Positions 26,980 to 63,497 of a stretch of 64,000 nucleotides of DNA are shown here, one piece after another (the stretch's first letter is position 1; each line of letters opens with the position of its first letter). The DNA lies in the NCBI GenBank assembly GCA_963794325.1, contig CAWCDG010000004.1, positions 1,568,001 to 1,632,000 of the forward strand. The letters are read 5' to 3'. The DNA is from an uncultured delta proteobacterium. GTDB taxonomy: Bacteria; Desulfobacterota; Binatia; Binatales; Binataceae. The notes below the pieces were generated by a model, which searched no databases, was not told the origin of the DNA, and saw only the letters and a program-made list of their open reading frames with translations. The position numbers were made by a program, and so were the translations under genes.

Positions 26980-27259
26980 CGCGATTCTCCTGTGGCGCAC
27001 CTGAGGTTTCGGCTGAGCTAACAATATCATAAGAGGTGCGCCCAAGTTTGCGGGAAAAATCGGCGCACGATGCGAATTCTCCGGTGCATTTCGCGCCGGC
27101 AAATGTGGCAAAGGATTGCCATTGTGGTCATGACGATTGCCGGGCCTCGCACTCGACGCATCGCGACAGCACCTGGTCGTCGCGCCTTTGTGATCCGTAA
27201 TTTCTACAGAAGTCGGCTCCTCAAATCGCGCTAACTGTCGCTAACACGGCTCTGACGGT

Positions 27260-27275
27260 TGGCACGCGCAATGCT
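27260..27275 (+). promoter_or_regulatory. sigma54 -24/-12 promoter motif
   Basis: TGGCACGCGCAATGCT, 43 bp upstream of the lipoprotein gene. Confidence 0.75.
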
Positions 27276-41559: not shown

Positions 41560-41618
41560 GGACGGGCTCGTATCCTGGATTGTAAATACTACAATCGGGT
41601 GCGAGCCCGTCCGCTTTT
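41560..41618 (+). terminator. Long intrinsic-terminator-like hairpin
   Basis: GGACGGGCTCGTATCC/GGGTGCGAGCCCGTCC stem with inner GATTGTA/TACAATC, then GCTTTT. Confidence 0.6.
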
Positions 41619-41782
41619 GAACGCGTCACCTGAAATCCTTTCGTCTCCCGAACTGCTCCTTTTGCTTTCTTTAATTTTCCTGAGCCACCTTTCAGCCGAT
41701 CTCAGTTTGTAATCCTTTCACAGTACGCGCCTGCCACGCGCGCAATGGGCCTAATTCAGCGTCGTTTCAATCATCTGTGCGA

Positions 41783-41798
41783 TGGCACGCGAGTTGCC
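41783..41798 (+). promoter_or_regulatory. sigma54 -24/-12 promoter motif heading the main EPS operon
   Basis: TGGCACGCGAGTTGCC, a near-perfect match to TGGCACG-N4-TTGC. Confidence 0.85.
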
Positions 41799-56613: not shown

Positions 56614-57435
56614 ATGGATGTGAAAGCAGAAACGAACGAGAAGCCGAAAGCGAGAACCCTGGTGGTCGGGCTCGGCGAAGTGGGCGGCGCGCTCGCTGCG
56701 GTGTTGGACCGCAAGGAACCCGTGCTGCGGCACGACCTCGACAGAGTGAAGATAGAAGACCCGATTGGGACTATGCACATCTGTATCCCGTTTCAAACGC
56801 CGCATCAGTTCGAAACTGTCGCGCTCGGATACATCAGCCGGTTTCAGCCCGCTCTGACGATCATCAACAGCACTGTGTTGCCGGGAACCACTCGATCGAT
56901 CGCGGAAAAGAGCGGCAGCGCCGTCGCGTACAGCCCGGTGCGTGGCAAGCACGTGCGGATGGAGCAGGACCTTTCGCATTACTGCAAATTCGTCGCAGCC
57001 CCCAACCGAGCGGACGCGGCCAGCGCCGAGGCGCACTTTCAGGCGGCCGGCATGAAAACCCGGCGGATGACGGAAGTCGAGTCGCTCGAGCTGGGGAAGC
57101 TGGCCGAGACCACGTATTTCGGCGCATGCATCGCGTTCGCACAGGAGATGAACCGCTACGCGGAGCGGGTCGGCGGCGACTATTCCGAGTCGATCGATTT
57201 TTTCGAGGAAGTGGATTTCCTGCCGCGCCAGCGTTACTTCCCCGGCTTCATCGGCGGCCACTGCGTTATTCCCAACATCAAACTGCTGCTTCAAATAGCG
57301 CCGTCGCAGACGCTCGAAGCAATATTGGATTCAAATGAACGACGTGCAATTGAACTCGAATCGCGAAAGGGGGCCAAGGCAGTTTCCAGCTCGCGCGAGC
57401 CTCAGCCGGCCAAAGTGCTGGCTGATCGGCAATAG
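56614..57435 (+). CDS. Short UDP-glucose/GDP-mannose dehydrogenase-family protein
   Basis: GLGEVG, INSTVLPGTT, YSPVRG, ELGKLAETTY, PGFIGGHC; no C-terminal domain; AGGAG RBS. Confidence 0.78.
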   Translation: MDVKAETNEKPKARTLVVGLGEVGGALAAVLDRKEPVLRHDLDRVKIEDPIGTMHICIPFQTPHQFETVALGYISRFQPALTIINSTVLPGTTRSIAEKSGSAVAYSPVRGKHVRMEQDLSHYCKFVAAPNRADAASAEAHFQAAGMKTRRMTEVESLELGKLAETTYFGACIAFAQEMNRYAERVGGDYSESIDFFEEVDFLPRQRYFPGFIGGHCVIPNIKLLLQIAPSQTLEAILDSNERRAIELESRKGAKAVSSSREPQPAKVLADRQ

Positions 57436-58762
57436 TCCGGAGCTGCCCACTGCGGCCGGACGGATCGCGCGGCTGCGCGGTCTCGAGGTCGAGGTTTGTC
57501 CTGCGAATGGGGCCGCGCTTCCGTCTTTTCAGACGGCCCGCAACCAGCTGATCGCGATCAATTTCGATCTGTTGTCGCGGCTCGAAGCCGGCGCACAGGC
57601 GCGTCTGCGCGAAGCCGCCGAGAATGGCGCGACCATTTACGTGCGCGGAGGGCTACAGCCTGGACGCAGATTCTCGATGCGGCCGTTTTCGGATCAGCAG
57701 TTCCAGTTTTTGGACTTGCCGGCCGACGGTTATCAATTCTCGACCCATCCGATCCTTCCCGCAGCAATCGCCGGCGAACGAATAGTCACCAGGTTGAACA
57801 TGCCGATGGCGGCTGGATTGGACGACAGCGTCCGCCCGATCGTGTGGAGTCTGCATCGAACCGGATCCGGGACGCCGTCAATTTTTTCGATCGAAGTGGG
57901 TGCCGGCATCGCGATCTTCGATCTTCATCCTGATGATGAATCCAGCGAGCATGAATTGCTCGCGGAACTCGCCGCGCCAACCAGAAGAGCTGCCAGTATC
58001 GGGGCGGTCGCGGCGGTTGATTGGGCCGCCGGACGCAATCCAGCGACTCCCGTGCCGATCAATCTCGTCATCGACGATCGTCCGATCAACTTCGACTATT
58101 TCAACGCGGGCAGGTTGAAGACGTTTATGCAACATCTCGATGATCGGTGCCCCGGCATCCACACCGATTTCGCGTGGACGCCAAGTTACACGCGGCCGTA
58201 TCGCCGCTACCTGGACGTACTGGCACAGCACAACACCGGCTTCGTGTGGCACGGGTTCCTGCGCCACGTGGATCATCGCAGGATCACTGATTTCGAGTCG
58301 CAGCTCGACGCGGGGCGTGCACGCGTCGAAGAAATCACGCGGCATTACGGCGTTAGATTTCAAAGGGTGATGATTTTTCCATACGAAAAAGGCACGCGTC
58401 GCGCCGACGAACTTCTGCGCCGCGCGGGTTTCGTGGCGAAGGTTCAGTCGATGGAGGACAGTCCGCATCCGAATTACTACCGGCTGCGGGGCGTCGCCGA
58501 CAAACCGTCGTTTGATGAGTTCAGTGTGATTTATCGCGATTCGATCGAAACCCTCACCCGCGATCGAATGTTGGCCCTGGCTACGCTTGGGATGCCGGTG
58601 GCCGCGCTGGCGCATCCTCGCGATCTGGCCCTGCGCCGGTTTCAGCCGGGCGATCCGGGCGCAGTGTCGTACTTTGATTCAGTGCTGGCGTTTGCGGCGG
58701 AAAAGTCGCTGCGACCGATGTCGCTCGAAGAAATAGCGGCCGAAGTGCCGGCCGCGCGATAA
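57335..58762 (+). CDS. Hypothetical protein with a C-terminal deacetylase-like (NodB-type) region
   Basis: LVIDD, WHGF..H, MIFPYE, AHP motifs; last gene of the operon; start uncertain. Confidence 0.6.
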   Translation: MNDVQLNSNRERGPRQFPARASLSRPKCWLIGNSPELPTAAGRIARLRGLEVEVCPANGAALPSFQTARNQLIAINFDLLSRLEAGAQARLREAAENGATIYVRGGLQPGRRFSMRPFSDQQFQFLDLPADGYQFSTHPILPAAIAGERIVTRLNMPMAAGLDDSVRPIVWSLHRTGSGTPSIFSIEVGAGIAIFDLHPDDESSEHELLAELAAPTRRAASIGAVAAVDWAAGRNPATPVPINLVIDDRPINFDYFNAGRLKTFMQHLDDRCPGIHTDFAWTPSYTRPYRRYLDVLAQHNTGFVWHGFLRHVDHRRITDFESQLDAGRARVEEITRHYGVRFQRVMIFPYEKGTRRADELLRRAGFVAKVQSMEDSPHPNYYRLRGVADKPSFDEFSVIYRDSIETLTRDRMLALATLGMPVAALAHPRDLALRRFQPGDPGAVSYFDSVLAFAAEKSLRPMSLEEIAAEVPAAR

Positions 58763-58772
58763 TCGAGTCCCG

Positions 58773-60209
58773 TCAGTTACCGTGATGTCGCGACGACTCG
58801 CTCGACGACTCGCGATCCTTCCCCTGGTAGCGAACCAGCCGGTTGTAGAGCGTCTTTAAACTGATCCCGAGAATTTGAGCGGCGCGCACTTTATTGCCGT
58901 TGGTAAAATCCAGCGTCTTGAAAATGAACTCGCGCTCGACTTCGTCCAGCGACTCTCCGATGCGCAATTCGAAATGAGGTCCCTTGCGGCCGGCACGCCT
59001 GACGTCGACCGGAAGATCGGCGGCCGCGAGCAGAGGCCGTCGTGCAACGATAGTGGCGCGCTCGATCACGTTTCGCAGTTGCATTACGTTGCCGGGCCAT
59101 CGAAACAAGCGAAGAATTTCCAGACATTCGTTGTCGACGCCGGTCACCGATTTTCGATTGTTCTGCGCGGACTGTGCAACAAACGCCTCGACCAGCGCCG
59201 GAATATCTTCGAGCCGATCGCGCAGCGGCGGCAGTTCGATGGTGAAAGTATTGAGTCTCGAATATAAGTCTTCGCGCAATCTGCCGTAGTGAGTGGCCTC
59301 CGCCAGACTTTTGCTCGAAGACGCGATCAGGCGAACATCCAGCGACGTTTCGTTTCCGTTGCTGGCGCCGAGCCGGCGGAATTTCCTTTCCTCGATCGTT
59401 CGCAGCAGCTTGGCCTGGAGTTCGATCTTCAGCTCGGTAATTTCGTCGAGCAGGAGGGTACCGCCATTGGCCATCGCCAGCAGTCCTTCGCGGCGCCGTG
59501 CGGCTCCCGCAAAAGCGCCGGGCTCGTGGCCCCACAGCTCGCTCTCCATCAGGTCGTGCGGCAATCCCGAGCAGGTGACGGCGACGTATGGATCATTGCG
59601 GCGCGCCGACAGCTCGTGAATCGTCCGCGCCACGATTTTCTTGCCGGTTCCGCTTTCTCCGACGATCGACACCGAGGCGGAACTCGACGCCGCGGCTTCC
59701 TCGACCAGCCTCATCACGCGACGCATCGCGGGCGATTGCCCGATGATTGGTCCAAGCGTGCCGGCCTCGATCAACTTTCGCCGGAGACGCTGGTTTTCCT
59801 CGCTCACTCTGAGTTGAGTCATCAATTCGTTCAAGAGCACGCGCAGATTGGTCGGATTGATCGGCTTGGAGACAACGTCGTAGGCGCCGGGCTTGGTGAT
59901 GGGTTCTTTTGAACGAAGGTCGGCCTCTTCGGCCATCACGATCGTCGCGACTTCGACGCCGCGTGCTTGCAATTCACCTAAAACGGTCTCGCCGTCTTTC
60001 TGATGTGCTTTCAGATCGATCAGAAGGACATGCGGCGAAAACGACTTGGTCTTTTCGAACACCTGATTGCCCGCGACGGCCTGAACCACAAAGCCCCACG
60101 AGTTGATCAGGTCGCGCAATTTCTCGCGGCCGGACTGGTCATCCGCGACGACGAGAATGCGGAGGTCACGGTTATTATCTGACGTGTTGGAGGTTGCTGG
60201 CATCGTCAT
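58773..60209 (-). CDS. NtrC-family sigma54 enhancer-binding protein (REC-AAA-Fis HTH) with degenerate activation motifs
   Basis: GESGTGK, GAFAGA, LLDEI, WPGNVMQL, GNKVRAAQILGIS.KTLYNRL. Confidence 0.9.
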   Translation of the reverse strand: MTMPATSNTSDNNRDLRILVVADDQSGREKLRDLINSWGFVVQAVAGNQVFEKTKSFSPHVLLIDLKAHQKDGETVLGELQARGVEVATIVMAEEADLRSKEPITKPGAYDVVSKPINPTNLRVLLNELMTQLRVSEENQRLRRKLIEAGTLGPIIGQSPAMRRVMRLVEEAAASSSASVSIVGESGTGKKIVARTIHELSARRNDPYVAVTCSGLPHDLMESELWGHEPGAFAGAARRREGLLAMANGGTLLLDEITELKIELQAKLLRTIEERKFRRLGASNGNETSLDVRLIASSSKSLAEATHYGRLREDLYSRLNTFTIELPPLRDRLEDIPALVEAFVAQSAQNNRKSVTGVDNECLEILRLFRWPGNVMQLRNVIERATIVARRPLLAAADLPVDVRRAGRKGPHFELRIGESLDEVEREFIFKTLDFTNGNKVRAAQILGISLKTLYNRLVRYQGKDRESSSESSRHHGN

Positions 60210-60218
60210 TGAATAAGC

Positions 60219-60234
60219 AGCAACCGATGTGCCA
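60219..60234 (-). promoter_or_regulatory. sigma54 -24/-12 promoter motif
   Basis: Minus strand TGGCACATCGGTTGCT, immediately upstream of the regulator ATG. Confidence 0.82.
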
Positions 60235-60381
60235 TGCGGTGGTCGAGAAAAAGCCCCCTGAATCCCCGAGAAAATAATTCGAGAAAATCGCCTCTTAAGT
60301 AAGAAATACATAATTTTAGATATTCGCCTTCTGTGCGAGATTAGAAAGGCTTTATTCCCAACATCTTTTAGTCGCCATTTC

Positions 60382-60397
60382 CGGCACGGCGATTGCT
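60382..60397 (+). promoter_or_regulatory. sigma54 -24/-12 promoter motif with no conventional gene downstream
   Basis: CGGCACGGCGATTGCT. Confidence 0.72.
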
Positions 60398-60594
60398 CAA
60401 GTACTTCAGGATAGCTCGGAGGGTGCGCCAGGCATTATACGGCGCCCGAGTTGGTCGCTACCTTTCCTCAATCGACTACTACTCAAACTGCTACTACCAA
60501 TGATGATGGCGACGTGCAGCGCCAGACGACGACTACAGTTGTCGCACCGTAGCCGGTATCTTACTTTCGCGCTCTGACTCTTTGTTTGAAAGCT

Positions 60595-60641
60595 AAAAAA
60601 GAGCAATCCGCTGAGCATTGAGTTATGCCCAGCGGATTGCT
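60595..60641 (-). terminator. Intrinsic terminator of the DUF1328 gene (possibly bidirectional)
   Basis: AGCAATCCGCTG/CAGCGGATTGCT stem; A6 on its left reads as a U tract on the minus strand. Confidence 0.72.
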
Positions 60642-60672
60642 GTTAATGGGGCGGATCAATTCGACGGCAAGT

Positions 60673-60834
60673 TCAAAGAATTGCTCGTCCTGCGACCAGC
60701 GAGACCACGAACAAGACCAGAAATACGACGAATAGGATTCTCGCAAATTCCGCGGACACGCCCGCAATGCCGCCAAATCCTAGCGCCGCCGCAATGACAG
60801 CTATCACTAGAAAAACGAGTGCGTAATACAGCAT
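60673..60834 (-). CDS. DUF1328 (UPF0391/YtjA-like) small membrane protein; not in the ORF track
   Basis: [53 protein letters not shown]; GAGG RBS. Confidence 0.92.
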
Positions 60835-60869
60835 GAGTCAGTACCTCACGGGTAGGATACAGAGTAATC

Positions 60870-60885
60870 AGCAACTACTATGCCA
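60870..60885 (-). promoter_or_regulatory. sigma54 -24/-12 promoter motif
   Basis: Minus strand TGGCATAGTAGTTGCT, upstream of the DUF1328 gene. Confidence 0.8.
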
Positions 60886-60988
60886 TGGTTCATCGAAAAT
60901 TCCCGGAGTAATTGGCCTTTAGGATTCGTGAATAAATTACTCCGAGTATGCTTCAAGAGAATCCTTTCAGGCTGTGGACCTATGACGG

Positions 60989-61004
60989 TGGCCCTATCCT
61001 TGCT
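60989..61004 (+). promoter_or_regulatory. sigma54 -24/-12 promoter motif
   Basis: TGGCCCTATCCTTGCT, upstream of the csbD-like gene. Confidence 0.7.
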
Positions 61005-61069
61005 CGCTTTTATTAGTGTCATGGCCAAGGGATCGTAAAACCCCACTTACCCGCAAGGAGCAGTACCGT

Positions 61070-61267
61070 ATGAATACGGATCAGGTTAAGGGCAAGTTCA
61101 AGCAGCTTTCTGGTGAGATCAAGCGCAAATGGGGCCAGGTGACCGACGATGATTTGAAGCAGGCCCAGGGCAGCATGGAGAAACTTATCGGCAAGATTCA
61201 AGAGCGCTCAGGCGACCGCCGTGAGGCAATCGAGCAGTGGCTCAAGTCGCAAGGTATGAACGAGTAA
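61070..61267 (+). CDS. CsbD-family general stress protein
   Basis: MNTDQVKGKFKQLSGEIKRKWGQVTDDDL...GKIQER.G; AAGGAG RBS. Confidence 0.92.
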   Translation: MNTDQVKGKFKQLSGEIKRKWGQVTDDDLKQAQGSMEKLIGKIQERSGDRREAIEQWLKSQGMNE

Positions 61268-61281
61268 CCAGGAGGTAATGT

Positions 61282-61749
61282 ATGGATACAAAATACGCAT
61301 TCAGATTGATCGTGCCGGCGGTCCTGTTCGGGATGGTCTTGTCCGTTCCGGCCTTCGCTCAAAACAGCGCGCCGAATAGCCCGAACGCTGCGTCACCGGC
61401 CAGCGAGGATATGAACGCGCCGGCCGGACAGCAGATGCGTGCGGCTGGTCGAGAGATGAAGGATGCCGGTAGTGACACTGCCGCGGCAGCGACGGACACC
61501 TATCATGGAACTACGCGTGCGGTAAAAGACACGACCATCACCGCCGAAGTGAAGACCGCATTGAAGCGGGATCCACAGGTAGGATTAACCAGGATTCACG
61601 TCATGACCTCCGGCGGAGTCGTGACCTTGAAGGGCAAGGTGCCGACGCCTGATGTGGCTGCGCATGCTGCCCTAGTCGCGGAACAAAACAAGGGCGTCAA
61701 GAGCGTGGACAACCAACTGATGGTGGCTAATTCGGCGCGAACCGACTAG
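61282..61749 (+). CDS. Exported BON-domain protein (OsmY-like)
   Basis: Signal peptide (AFA), DTTITAEVK.AL, GVVTLKG.V, GVKSVDNQL; AGGAGG RBS. Confidence 0.9.
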   Translation: MDTKYAFRLIVPAVLFGMVLSVPAFAQNSAPNSPNAASPASEDMNAPAGQQMRAAGREMKDAGSDTAAAATDTYHGTTRAVKDTTITAEVKTALKRDPQVGLTRIHVMTSGGVVTLKGKVPTPDVAAHAALVAEQNKGVKSVDNQLMVANSARTD

Positions 61750-61774
61750 CCCGCCAGTCCACTAACAAATCGGA

Positions 61775-61827
61775 GTCGCCGCCGGTTCGTGGGCATCAAG
61801 CTCGCGAACCCGGCGGCGGCAGTTTTT
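61775..61827 (+). terminator. Intrinsic terminator
   Basis: GTCGCCGCCGGTTCG/CGAACCCGGCGGCGGC hairpin, then AGTTTTT. Confidence 0.7.
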
Positions 61828-62047
61828 ATGGTTGAGGTTATCGAGTTTCAGCGATCGGGGTGTTCTGCAGGCTCAACGGTGTTGCCAGTATCGCTGGTTT
61901 GGTCCTCTTTTCACACATCCAGTTAATAAGCGGGTTTAACTGAATCATCGGAAAAATTTTCAGCACGGATTACATGGTTCCCACTTTTCGGATTTTTGCG
62001 AGTTACCCAAGTCCTCGAAAAAAAAGGGTAATCCATTTCCGGGGCGC

Positions 62048-62063
62048 TGGCACGAGCATTGCG
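62048..62063 (+). promoter_or_regulatory. sigma54 -24/-12 promoter motif
   Basis: TGGCACGAGCATTGCG. Confidence 0.85.
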
Positions 62064-62073
62064 TGTCTATATT

Positions 62074-62193
62074 GCCTTGAGAACTTGGTCCAAAGGACCA
62101 GTAAGTAAAGTCTCCTTCCCCCAATCCGGCAGGGTCGGTTGCCCCGAACGTCCTCCCCCCGTTTGCGGCGCTGAAACTGCCGGATTTCTTTTT
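62074..62193 (+). ncRNA. Candidate sigma54-dependent sRNA or attenuator leader
   Basis: GGTCC/GGACC hairpin, CTCCTTCCCCC tract, AATCCGGCAG/CTGCCGGATT stem enclosing a TCCTCCCCC loop, then TCTTTTT. Confidence 0.5.
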
Positions 62194-62227
62194 ATCAATC
62201 GCAGTCGCGATTCGTCAGGAGTGCCCT

Positions 62228-62425
62228 ATGCCCAGGAAGTCCAGGGGTCGGAAGTATTCGAAGAAGGCCGGCGAGGCGGTCAAACGCGAAATGCATGCGA
62301 TGAAGCTGGGGACGCTGAAATCGGGCCGCTCGGGCAAAAAGGTCAAGGCGCGCAAGCAGGCGATTGCAATTGGCCTCTCCGAGGCCCGGCGCTCCGGCGC
62401 TAAAGTCCCTAAAAAGAAATCTTAG
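62228..62425 (+). CDS. DUF6496-family small basic protein
   Basis: KYSKKA...VKREMH..K.GTLKSGRSG.KV..RKQAIAIGLSEARR.G.KVP; AGGAG RBS. Confidence 0.88.
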   Translation: MPRKSRGRKYSKKAGEAVKREMHAMKLGTLKSGRSGKKVKARKQAIAIGLSEARRSGAKVPKKKS

Positions 62426-62598
62426 CGAGCAGACCTTCCGTTCGTACCCGTCTTCCTTGCCAGGCCGCCAGCCGGTAACAGTCCGGCGCCGCACTAGCCT
62501 GACTTGCGAGGCTCGAACTCAGTAAGAAATATCGTCTCTTATAGTAAGTCTTTCATTCGATCATTCCTGCTTTAGCGCGATTTATTTGTGCAATCCAT

Positions 62599-62614
62599 TG
62601 GCGCGCTTCCTGCT
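62599..62614 (+). promoter_or_regulatory. sigma54 -24/-12 promoter motif
   Basis: TGGCGCGCTTCCTGCT, upstream of two micro-protein genes. Confidence 0.68.
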
Positions 62615-62677
62615 ATTTAAGCACTTGTCGATTCATAGATGGGTCGGCGGGGTGCAACAGGAAAAGGAAGTATTCAA

Positions 62678-62758
62678 ATGCGTTATGCGATTGCATGGCT
62701 TCTAGGTGTTCCGGCTTCGATTGTCATCCTCTGGTTCGTGCTGGGGCACATGCTCTAA
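62678..62758 (+). CDS. 26-aa single-TM micro-protein; not in the ORF track
   Basis: MRYAIAWLLGVPASIVILWFVLGHML*; AAGGA RBS; WLLGVP motif. Confidence 0.7.
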   Translation: MRYAIAWLLGVPASIVILWFVLGHML

Positions 62759-62834
62759 CTCCAAACTCAGGTCCATCTGAAAACGATGAACCCCGCGGAC
62801 AAAGTCGCGGCGACGCAATTTCAGGAAGACAGTT

Positions 62835-62987
62835 ATGAACCTAATATTACTAGTCCTACTCGTGGTTCTCTTGATCGGCGCATTGCCCGCCTGGCCGTAT
62901 AGTGCCGGCTGGGGCTACTATCCTAGCAGCGCGCTCGGGACGATCCTGGTCATAGTTCTCGTTCTCGCATTGCTTGGACGAGTCTAA
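62835..62987 (+). CDS. DUF3309-family small membrane protein; not in the ORF track
   Basis: MNLILLVLLVVLLIGALPAWPYSAGWGYYPSSALGTILVIVLVLALLGRV*. Confidence 0.92.
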   Translation: MNLILLVLLVVLLIGALPAWPYSAGWGYYPSSALGTILVIVLVLALLGRV

Positions 62988-63027
62988 GACTTCCGCTTCG
63001 TAGGCGATGGCCGTCAGTAGAAGCGAC

Positions 63028-63255
63028 CTACTGACGGTTCATCACCATTCCTGCGCCAATCAGGACAACGCCAAGAACCATCGCTCCCACGCTCACGATC
63101 GGCGGGATGAAGTGTGGTTCCTCAGTCTTGGCCTGAACTTTCAAGTCACCGAATTTCACCACGTCCTGGGTTCGCTCCGTATTGAAGGAGGGCATCGCAA
63201 AGGCGATGAGCCCTAGAAGCGCGACTATCGCGCCGAACATCATGATGCTTTTCAT
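63028..63255 (-). CDS. Small two-TM membrane protein (DUF3185-like)
   Basis: TM - TERTQDVVKFGDLKV - IPP - TM; GGAGG RBS. Confidence 0.8.
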   Translation of the reverse strand: MKSIMMFGAIVALLGLIAFAMPSFNTERTQDVVKFGDLKVQAKTEEPHFIPPIVSVGAMVLGVVLIGAGMVMNRQ

Positions 63256-63306
63256 TTCGGTTGTCCTCCAGAAAGTGTTACGTAGGTTCCGCAGGTCCGG
63301 CGAATA

Positions 63307-63322
63307 AGCAAGCCAAGTGCCA
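63307..63322 (-). promoter_or_regulatory. sigma54 -24/-12 promoter motif
   Basis: Minus strand TGGCACTTGGCTTGCT. Confidence 0.82.
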
Positions 63323-63497
63323 CAGAATCTGCCCGCGTCACGATGCTTTGCACGGACCGTAGGCATCCCCGCCGGGAATCATGTAATTGTTGCTCTGTCG
63401 CTATGATTTTCCTGACGTTTGACGTGATGCGCCGGGCTCATTGCGAACCGGCATCGCGCGGACTAAAAGCAGTGAGCCTGATGCGGCTGGAGCCAGC

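Follow-up and report, generated by a model that had tools for sequence, protein, structure and literature searches.

What purpose can a sigma-54 activator serve once it has lost the residues by which it activates? The question is raised by one gene in a 64,000-nucleotide stretch of DNA from an uncultured delta proteobacterium of the Binataceae (GenBank assembly GCA_963794325.1, contig CAWCDG010000004.1, positions 1,568,001 to 1,632,000), referred to below as the window. A minus-strand open reading frame (ORF) at 58773..60311 encodes a protein with a receiver domain (REC), a sigma-54-type AAA+ domain and a Fis-type helix-turn-helix (HTH). The start codon consistent with the orthologues, which are 466-478 aa long and begin at the equivalent Met, is ATG 60209 (478 aa, coding sequence 58773..60209, stop included) or the alternative ATG 60203 (476 aa). 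A preliminary description of the locus had set the span at 58773..60234; the gene lies there, and the upper end is non-coding, 60234 being the T of a promoter's TGGCAC. Pfam models match the receiver (59835..60158, PF00072 Response_reg, 51.4 bits), the AAA+ core (59235..59747, PF00158 Sigma54_activat, 190.9 bits against a cut-off of 20.2), the AAA+ lid (58983..59222, PF25601 AAA_lid_14, 74.8 bits) and the HTH NGNKVRAAQILGISLKTLYNRL (58827..58949, PF02954 HTH_8, 41.8 bits), all on the minus strand.

In bacterial enhancer-binding proteins (EBPs), Walker A reads GxxxxGK followed by Asp or Glu, and the motifs run in the order Walker A, switch Asn, L1 loop, Walker B, sensor I, arginine fingers and sensor II (PMC7175178). 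Most of these elements are altered in the window protein. Walker A is GESGTGKK (59637-59660, minus strand, as are all the motifs that follow), with Lys in place of the acidic residue after the P-loop Lys; the L1 loop is GAFAGA (59502-59519), the Thr of GAFTGA having become Ala; sensor I is ASSSK (59310-59324, Asn to Ser), with a 2-residue insert ahead of it (within 59322-59375); DLYYRL reads DLYSRL (59253-59270); and sensor II is WPGNVMQL (59076-59099, Arg to Met). Walker B, LLLDEI (59439-59456), keeps its DE pair, and both Arg of the arginine-finger stretch FRxDLYYRL are present (LREDLYSRL). The receiver has its acidic pair (D23, D24), its phospho-Asp (D65, in LLIDL) and its Lys (K115), and carries Ala (IVMAEE) at the Thr/Ser position, so that its set of CheY-like phospho-acceptor residues is incomplete. 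The broken motifs reported in the preliminary description (GAFAGA, WPGNVMQL, ASSS, GTGKK and DLYSRL) are thus all present at verified coordinates, as are the missing receiver Thr/Ser and the intact HTH that it described; the replacement of the switch Asn by Thr in xNCAA (59568-59585) is a lesion additional to its list. Judged by every sequence criterion, the protein would be unable to hydrolyse ATP productively or contact sigma-54. No named NCBIfam activator equivalog (AtoC, the PEP-CTERM-box regulator PrsR, ZraR, NtrC and others) scored above its curated cut-off, the best being AtoC (328.1, cut-off 714) and PEP_resp_reg (328.0, cut-off 502.6); identity with PrsR or AtoC is ruled out on this ground, and the canonical relatives likewise fall below all cut-offs.

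The lesions are shared by a whole clade. A search of 5.8 billion proteins gave 8000 scored candidates, and the best 120 of these were divided, once the motif table had been inspected, into a dead group (76 sequences, 66-100% identical to the query, making 77 with the query itself) and a canonical group (44 sequences, to which E12, an intact paralogue from the source genome, was added). The dead clade is assigned to Candidatus Binatus, its near relatives in the database and the related records being labelled Candidatus Binatus or Binataceae. Five residues present in 45/45 canonical sequences occur in 0/77 of the dead clade: the GAFTGA Thr (Ala in 56, Pro in 20, Glu in 1), the Walker-A Glu (Lys in 76, Arg in 1), the sensor-I Asn, the sensor-II Arg (Leu in 64, Met in 8, Gln in 5) and the second Tyr of DLYYRL, the Tyr between the two Arg (Ser in 74). 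The switch Asn, also found in 45/45 canonical sequences, survives in 7/77. Other elements have been kept to different degrees: the Walker-A Lys in 75/77; the Walker-B Asp in 54/77 (Glu instead in 19/77) and its Glu in 75/77; and the receiver phospho-Asp in 51 of the 75 ungapped sequences, having been lost in 24. The receiver Thr/Ser is found in one of the same 75, and is Ser in all 45 canonical sequences. The HTH is near-invariant across the clade and differs from the nearest canonical HTHs solely by a Glu to Gln change. Overall, 16 positions are conserved within each group yet different between the two, e.g., the Phe to Trp change in ELFGHE (77/77).

A quick IQ-TREE analysis of a 52-row subsample (26 dead sequences, 16 canonical and 10 other paralogues from the source genome), with the motif columns retained, grouped the dead sequences as a single clade (SH-aLRT 100, stem 0.29) nested inside the canonical sequences, with E12 as the next branch out. 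On this tree the dead clade has a single origin. Selection was assessed by the Nei-Gojobori ratio of nonsynonymous to synonymous divergence (dN/dS) between the window copy and 14 intact orthologous coding sequences. The ratio was 0.12-0.25 overall and differed between domains: 0-0.07 in the HTH, 0.04-0.18 in the lid, 0.11-0.34 in the AAA+ core and 0.12-0.54 in the receiver. The canonical E12-type paralogue, compared between those same pairs of genomes, gave 0.04-0.11 at similar dS. Because dN/dS is low and the HTH is the strictest domain, these ratios indicate that the dead form is maintained, with relaxed constraint on the receiver and AAA+ domains and very strict constraint on the HTH. Orthologues with canonical motifs, which the preliminary description had named as the sign of a merely recent decay, were not found; instead, the substitutions are conserved clade-wide under purifying selection, and recent decay is ruled out by dead motifs in all 77 members, the dN/dS range and the invariant HTH.

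The gene appears to be induced by the very system that it would no longer serve. A sigma-54 -24/-12 promoter, TGGCACATCGGTTGCT, matching 11/11 consensus positions, lies at 60219-60234 on the minus strand, its -12 GC 10-11 nt before ATG 60209. When the window was compared with 17 related loci, counting as promoters matches to at least 10/11 consensus positions, a same-strand sigma-54-like promoter was found upstream of the dead gene in 17/18; in the exception, L055, 983 nt of upstream sequence are available. Induction through the sigma-54 system, as the preliminary description had proposed, is therefore supported by a conserved promoter. Its position varies. The promoter stands at -25 from the start in the window and at -57 to -107 in L066, L073 and L065, with no intervening gene; at about -700 in L060-L063, with one gene between; and at -1060 to -1150 in the remaining loci, with BON and YflT-like genes between (the intervening ORFs were verified in L054, L056 and L062). 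Relative to L054, where the same promoter has a leader of ~100 nt and AGGAGG before the BON gene, the window arrangement is evidently derived by deletion: ~1.03 kb is missing by blastn at a junction at 60198..60209 (minus strand), so that the BON and YflT genes are gone and the promoter leader is fused to the start codon. The breakpoint falls at an ATGCC microhomology near 60198-60203 (window 60198-60255 compared with L054 4921-6011). A strictly conserved promoter position is thereby ruled out, -25 being unique to the source genome. The fusion is not an assembly artefact, since the promoter-ATG junction is spanned by short-read contigs from run X1 (record 4) and from run X2 (record 12); both runs come from one study, and X1 is possibly the source sample.

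Other elements near the start codon were considered in the orthologues. Many of them have a conserved GGCAACC box immediately ahead of the ATG; by eye it was rejected as a sigma-54 promoter, the GG-to-GC spacing being wrong and the box too near the ATG. Between the YflT-like and dead genes lies a conserved GC-rich hairpin (GCGGGCGATGGA...TCCATCGCCCGC; L056 5899-6000, and L057-L059, L064, L067 and L069), followed by a conserved box, cGGCAACCAGCAGCC, that abuts the ATG, with no Shine-Dalgarno sequence. Hairpin and box could form an attenuator or translational element.

Between the dead gene's promoter and a divergent sigma-54-like promoter (CGGCACGGCGATTGCT, 60382-60397, plus strand, conserved as CGGCACAGCGATTGCT in orthologous loci) lies a GTA-N5-TAC site, of the kind to which the preliminary description had referred, a candidate enhancer or operator reading GTATTTCTTAC on the minus strand (60299..60309). 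The site stands ~55-107 nt from the two promoters. In a 15-locus alignment the equivalent site is GTATTTCCTAC in 13 of the 14 other loci and GTATTTTCTAC in L065, and the window differs at one spacer position; GTA-N5-TAC occurs within 300 nt upstream of the dead gene's promoter in 16/18 loci. The association was examined across 47 genomes of the genus, the source genome among them (two unpublished genomes, G019 and G024, are also counted, and both lack the dead form). Nineteen carry the full-length dead form, and one more, G012, carries an AAA+-less derivative, discussed below, as inferred from an identical upstream string. The composite pattern GTATTTYCTAC-N60-110-TGGCAY matched 16/47 genomes, all of them among these 20 and none among the other 27; the source genome was missed owing to its spacing of 54 nt. 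A reversed control pattern matched 2 genomes.

The site is also enriched on wider scales. The window contains nine GTA-N5-TAC sites against 1.74 expected from shuffles. Across the source genome there are 28 such sites with an A/T-rich spacer and 95 sigma-54-like promoters; six of the sites precede a promoter by no more than 300 nt, where by our arithmetic ~0.2 would be expected, and four of the six stand at 57-65 nt. Within the window, one site lies 63 nt upstream of a sigma-54-like promoter (27197-27274, promoter 27260) ahead of a lipoprotein, LigD primase-polymerase and PLD set, and another 201 nt upstream of a promoter (41582-41797, promoter 41783) ahead of a Poly_export/SLBB polysaccharide-export operon; a Tad pilus gene is also among the genes behind such promoters in the genome. 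Canonical members of the family show the same association. Among 32 canonical loci, defined by an HTH ending in KTLYN[RK]L, 17 have a GTA-(A/T-rich N5)-TAC within 350 bp upstream, mostly at -125 to -170 (two loci from unpublished genomes, L076 and L077, are included, neither of them a match). Several have paired sites exactly 14 bp apart, ~145-170 nt upstream of the gene (L032 1336-1360; L091 and L092), and in several a divergent sigma-54 promoter of the form TGGCAGAyGAnTTGCT follows the site at 62-63 nt. Read in reverse complement, the site of the dead gene is GTAGGAAATAC, one spacer base away from the canonical GTAGGAATTAC. Among 18 activator loci of the source genome, only that of E12 has the site, and the unrelated loci have it in 0/17. 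GTA-W5-TAC is therefore a candidate site of this activator family.

If the dead protein does not activate, which protein does? The source genome (G000; 4.45 Mb, 10 contigs, 85% complete) contains rpoN and 20 sigma-54-activator paralogues, of which the dead gene ranks 19th by score. It is the only one of the 20 with Ala at the loop Thr position (Thr in 16, Ser in two that read GAFSGA, no motif in one), and the sole exception to the sensor-II Arg (19/20); no other paralogue has a non-aromatic residue in DLY[Y/F]RL, and none has Lys after the Walker-A Lys. No further activator gene of this set lies in the window. No kinase gene adjoins the dead gene; the start of a CHASE3 sensor is at 63441. The closest intact paralogue is E12, on another contig (C7:279738-281093). 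It is 50% identical, has GSFTGA and all catalytic residues, carries the HTH AGNKTRAAEILGVSAKTLYNKL, has a GTA site 164 nt upstream, and is followed by a gene for a HAMP-PAS-HisKA-HATPase kinase. The preliminary description had expected the true activator outside the window and suggested searching the genome for a paralogue whose HTH is similar and whose loop is intact; E12, with its sensor kinase, answers to it. An E12-type gene is present in 18/19 genomes with the full-length dead form, compared with 11/28 other genomes, and in five (G009, G132, G139, G161 and G021) it lies in the same cluster, 3-4 kb from the dead gene. Two further paralogues of the source genome deserve mention. A receiver-less AAA+-HTH protein with canonical motifs (C3:2412-3470; 331-aa relatives in G007, G016 and G018) is 55% identical to the dead protein over residues 155-464 and counts as the third member of this family's radiation. 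E20 (C2:41004-42302) is a second degenerate activator paralogue, with RHTLAA in place of GAFTGA, DN at Walker B and ASS at sensor I.

Within the dead clade the AAA+ domain has been not only disabled but removed. In L073 the gene encodes a 206-aa protein from which residues equivalent to 134-407 are absent in frame, so that the receiver is joined straight to the HTH region. A second database search recovered eight clusters of this REC + HTH_8 architecture, 196-231 aa long and 42-100% identical to the L073 protein, with two distinct in-frame junctions (P0121-P0127 and P0128). These short forms keep RAAQ or RAAK where canonical sequences have RAAE. In a tree of receiver and HTH columns they fall within the dead clade in two places; the split of dead and short forms from canonical sequences has an SH-aLRT of 100, and the starred branches by themselves do not require two separate origins. 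In the one such locus that is readable upstream, the sigma-54 promoter and GTATTTCCTAC are retained. By this evidence the AAA+ domain is dispensable in the lineage. Because it has been deleted in eight nested, persisting clusters, ring assembly would not be needed for whatever function the lineage has in common, which argues for DNA binding, rather than the poisoning of rings, as that function.

Taken together, the most likely role of the protein is that of a brake or modulator rather than an activator. We consider it about an even chance that its gene product is a paralogous, activation-dead offshoot of the canonical two-component family of sigma-54 activators in the Binataceae, made in response to sigma-54 and acting as an enhancer occupant that gives feedback or modulation. 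The dead protein's HTH would bind the GTA-W5-TAC enhancers of its intact relatives, shared binding being suggested because the two HTHs are one residue (Glu to Gln) apart. Sigma-54-dependent synthesis would then load these enhancers with an occupant that is inert, because the dead protein presumably cannot remodel the sigma-54 holoenzyme. The live activator would be the E12-type paralogue, paired with a HAMP-PAS histidine kinase of its own. Stress, envelope and polysaccharide genes under sigma-54 might be damped or reshaped as a result, by negative feedback or as a timing device; the feedback would close on the sigma-54 system because that system makes the dead protein. A stronger version, to which we lean somewhat less than halfway, is a hard-wired decoy activator that keeps the family's DNA-reading head, has a dead motor, is induced by sigma-54 and shuts enhancers shared with the live activator, and whose AAA+ domain was lost twice independently to give a REC-HTH regulator.

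Several observations weigh against enhancer occupancy of this kind. Most of the A/T-rich GTA sites in the source genome (22/28) are away from sigma-54-like promoters; four of the six promoters clustered around the dead gene have no GTA site nearby; and 15/32 canonical loci lack one within 350 bp. It is by co-location that the site is assigned to this HTH, and the negative sign of the effect is one that we infer. The transcript in the window would be leaderless or nearly so, because the deletion leaves the -12 GC 10-11 nt from ATG 60209, and expression here is to that extent uncertain; for 58700-61300 no RNA run was listed. The group counts follow a division drawn with the motif table in view, and the tree is a subsample from which the motif columns were not removed. 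Finally, residues that are invariant and specific to the clade (ELW in 77/77, GKK in 76/77, DLYS in 74/77) exceed what plain erosion would leave, and hint at a new AAA+ function beyond simple loss. The last point bears on the main rival explanation, in which the protein is a sigma-54-independent atypical EBP like VpsR or NtrX, activates or represses sigma-70-type promoters of a regulon of its own, perhaps with a nucleotide or some other ligand in its altered pocket, and has a sigma-54 promoter merely as its switch. We regard this as rather unlikely, at roughly one chance in four, although computation does not separate it from enhancer occupancy. Known atypical EBPs whose GAFTGA and Walker motifs are altered do act with sigma-70 (PMC6158489; bioRxiv 10.1101/2023.06.06.543975). 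The Walker-A Lys, together with the new invariant residues W226, K191 and S317, suggests a retained pocket; the scatter of GTA sites away from sigma-54-like promoters, the conserved synteny by which the gene abuts a polysaccharide gene cluster, and the ordinary response-regulator architecture of the REC-HTH derivatives would all suit such a regulator. However, the invariant site is at enhancer distance from two sigma-54 promoters and not over a recognisable sigma-70 promoter, the composite site-promoter unit is confined to dead-lineage genomes, the HTH is almost unchanged from that of canonical activators, and no sigma-70 target was identified.

The preliminary description had also raised the poisoning of activator hexamers, which is weakened as the lineage's shared function by the AAA+-less clusters that keep only receiver and HTH. 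For the full-length protein, co-assembly through the AAA+ domain with an intact paralogue, giving mixed rings that fail at sigma-54 engagement or sequential ATP hydrolysis, is improbable in our estimate. Linked wild-type/T86A PspF dimers do fail to activate, adjacent L1 loops having to function (PMC4132715), hetero-oligomers of paralogous activators are known for VnfA1/VnfA3 and HrpR/HrpS (PMC9542535), and purifying selection still acts on the AAA+ core and lid (dN/dS 0.04-0.34); yet the core is only ~50% identical to that of the co-resident paralogue, and the eight clusters persist with no ring at all. That the protein is a working sigma-54 activator tolerant of its variant loop and ATP-site residues is very unlikely. 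It does have the full domain set, an intact Walker B in the source genome, a position amid sigma-54 promoters, and two co-resident paralogues whose GAFSGA indicates that some loop variation is tolerated. Against this, five catalytic or contact positions are replaced together in all or nearly all of the 77 sequences, Walker-B Asp and phospho-Asp have gone from many of them (19/77 and 24/75, respectively), derivatives without any AAA+ domain exist, and in PspF T86A by itself abolishes engagement (PMC4132715). Least probable of all, and close to negligible, is a decaying pseudogene or assembly artefact. Many of the source assemblies are metagenome bins, and the frame is interrupted in 3/17 related loci (one frameshift each in L068 and L069, two in the G021 copy, L098), where sequencing error and real decay are indistinguishable; but the frame is open over 466-478 aa in 15 loci, the same motif states recur in 76 database clusters, purifying selection is evident with the HTH invariant, and independent short-read contigs cover both the gene and the promoter junction.

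How does an enhancer-occupying dead activator compare with systems already described? Degenerate atypical EBPs are known, as are paralogues that bind together and hetero-oligomerise (PMC9542535). The former include VpsR of Vibrio cholerae, NtrX of Brucella and Caulobacter, TyrR of E. coli, HupR and NtrC of R. capsulatus, PhhR of P. putida, HsfA of M. xanthus and NtrC of Caulobacter, which have an altered sigma-54 loop, in some cases altered Walker motifs, and a retained DNA-binding domain (PMC6158489; bioRxiv 10.1101/2023.06.06.543975). The window protein combines EBP homology with a non-consensus sigma-54 loop and ATP-site residues, by which sequence criterion it would be an atypical EBP, and VpsR (PDB 7v2b) is a detectable relative (E 3.7e-33). 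It differs from them in that its loop keeps its length, as GAF[A/P]GA, neither deleted nor rewritten; in that a canonical parent family with the same HTH co-resides in its genome; and in that its gene is preceded by a sigma-54 promoter and, with it, the candidate site of the family. Action with sigma-70 has been shown for the atypical EBPs, whereas the window protein is known from its sequence.

The loss of the loop Thr has a laboratory counterpart in PspF T86A, a Thr to Ala change at the same position, which retains ATPase activity and fails to engage the closed complex, with wild-type/T86A linked dimers insufficient for activation (PMC4132715). The PspF variants were made in the laboratory, each with a single change, in a domain that lacks an HTH, whereas the lineage described here arose naturally and has added losses of the Walker-A Glu, switch Asn, sensor-I Asn and sensor-II Arg. 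Paralogues that bind the same promoters and can hetero-oligomerise are found in VnfA1/VnfA3 of A. vinelandii and HrpR/HrpS of P. syringae (PMC9542535); those pairs co-activate, whereas here one partner would be catalytically dead. Resting activators, namely PexR, FleQ, the repressor forms of NtrC, and FlbD, can repress by DNA occupancy, an enhancer-bound, non-activating EBP being able to lower transcription (PMC12754779); in these cases one protein switches between states, whereas the Binataceae would devote a gene of its own to a permanently non-activating state. The closest solved structures, an NtrC-family protein of Aquifex (4l4u), ZraR (1ojl) and NtrC1 (1ny5), align over the full length of receiver, AAA+ domain and HTH (E 1.7e-81 to 8.3e-72), and in the 4l4u and ZraR alignments GAFTGA, GKE and the sensor-II Arg stand opposite the GAFAGA, GKK and Met of the window protein. 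Titles and abstract openings, supplements and subscription journals aside, gave no report of a dead EBP paralogue that serves as decoy or dominant negative, has the HTH of a co-resident live activator, is driven by a sigma-54 promoter with the family's site, or has AAA+-less descendants.

Response regulators that join a receiver to a Fis-type HTH with no central domain are familiar as the ActR/PrrA/RegA type. The proteins P0121-P0128 share this two-domain architecture, which is a comparison of architecture and not of homology; they differ in having arisen recently, by in-frame deletion inside a dead activator.

The surroundings of the gene are themselves rich in sigma-54-like promoters. Counting matches with at most one mismatch, the window contains 11 against 4.24 expected from shuffles, and six of them fall within 3.1 kb (60219-63322), the sole cluster of at least four in 5 kb in the 4.45-Mb genome. 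Beyond the two already described, they lie at 60870-60885 (minus strand, before a DUF1328 gene at 60673-60834), 60989-61004 (plus, before CsbD and BON genes), 62048-62063 (plus, before a DUF6496 gene) and 63307-63322 (minus, before a small membrane-protein gene). The genes behind the cluster are small and of stress type (DUF1328, CsbD, BON, DUF6496, DUF3309 and the small membrane protein), and it looks like a sigma-54-driven, general-stress-like island. Only one GTA-N5-TAC occurs between 60200 and 64000, and a site shared by all six promoters was not found there. On the other side of the dead gene, and convergent with it, 57335-58762 (plus strand) encodes a 475-aa protein with no Pfam match; its gene holds the same position in L062 and L065, beside UDPG/GDP-mannose-dehydrogenase-like and glycosyltransferase genes.

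To our knowledge, control of sigma-54 promoters has been ascribed solely to the switching of their ATPase activators on and off or to separate anti-activator proteins. Decoy occupancy of enhancers would, if true, be a new layer of control over these promoters, and the first case on record in which a dead paralogue competes for enhancers. The short derivatives would likewise give a worked example of how Fis-type regulators without a central domain arise from sigma-54 activators. The clade offers a natural series on which activator residues are dispensable, from intact proteins through full-length dead forms, and forms that have also lost the phospho-Asp and the Walker-B Asp, to REC-HTH proteins. 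For the Binatota, an uncultured soil phylum, the locus marks a dense cluster of small stress genes that appear to be driven by sigma-54, and the candidate enhancer motif GTA-W5-TAC may make the regulon predictable from sequence.

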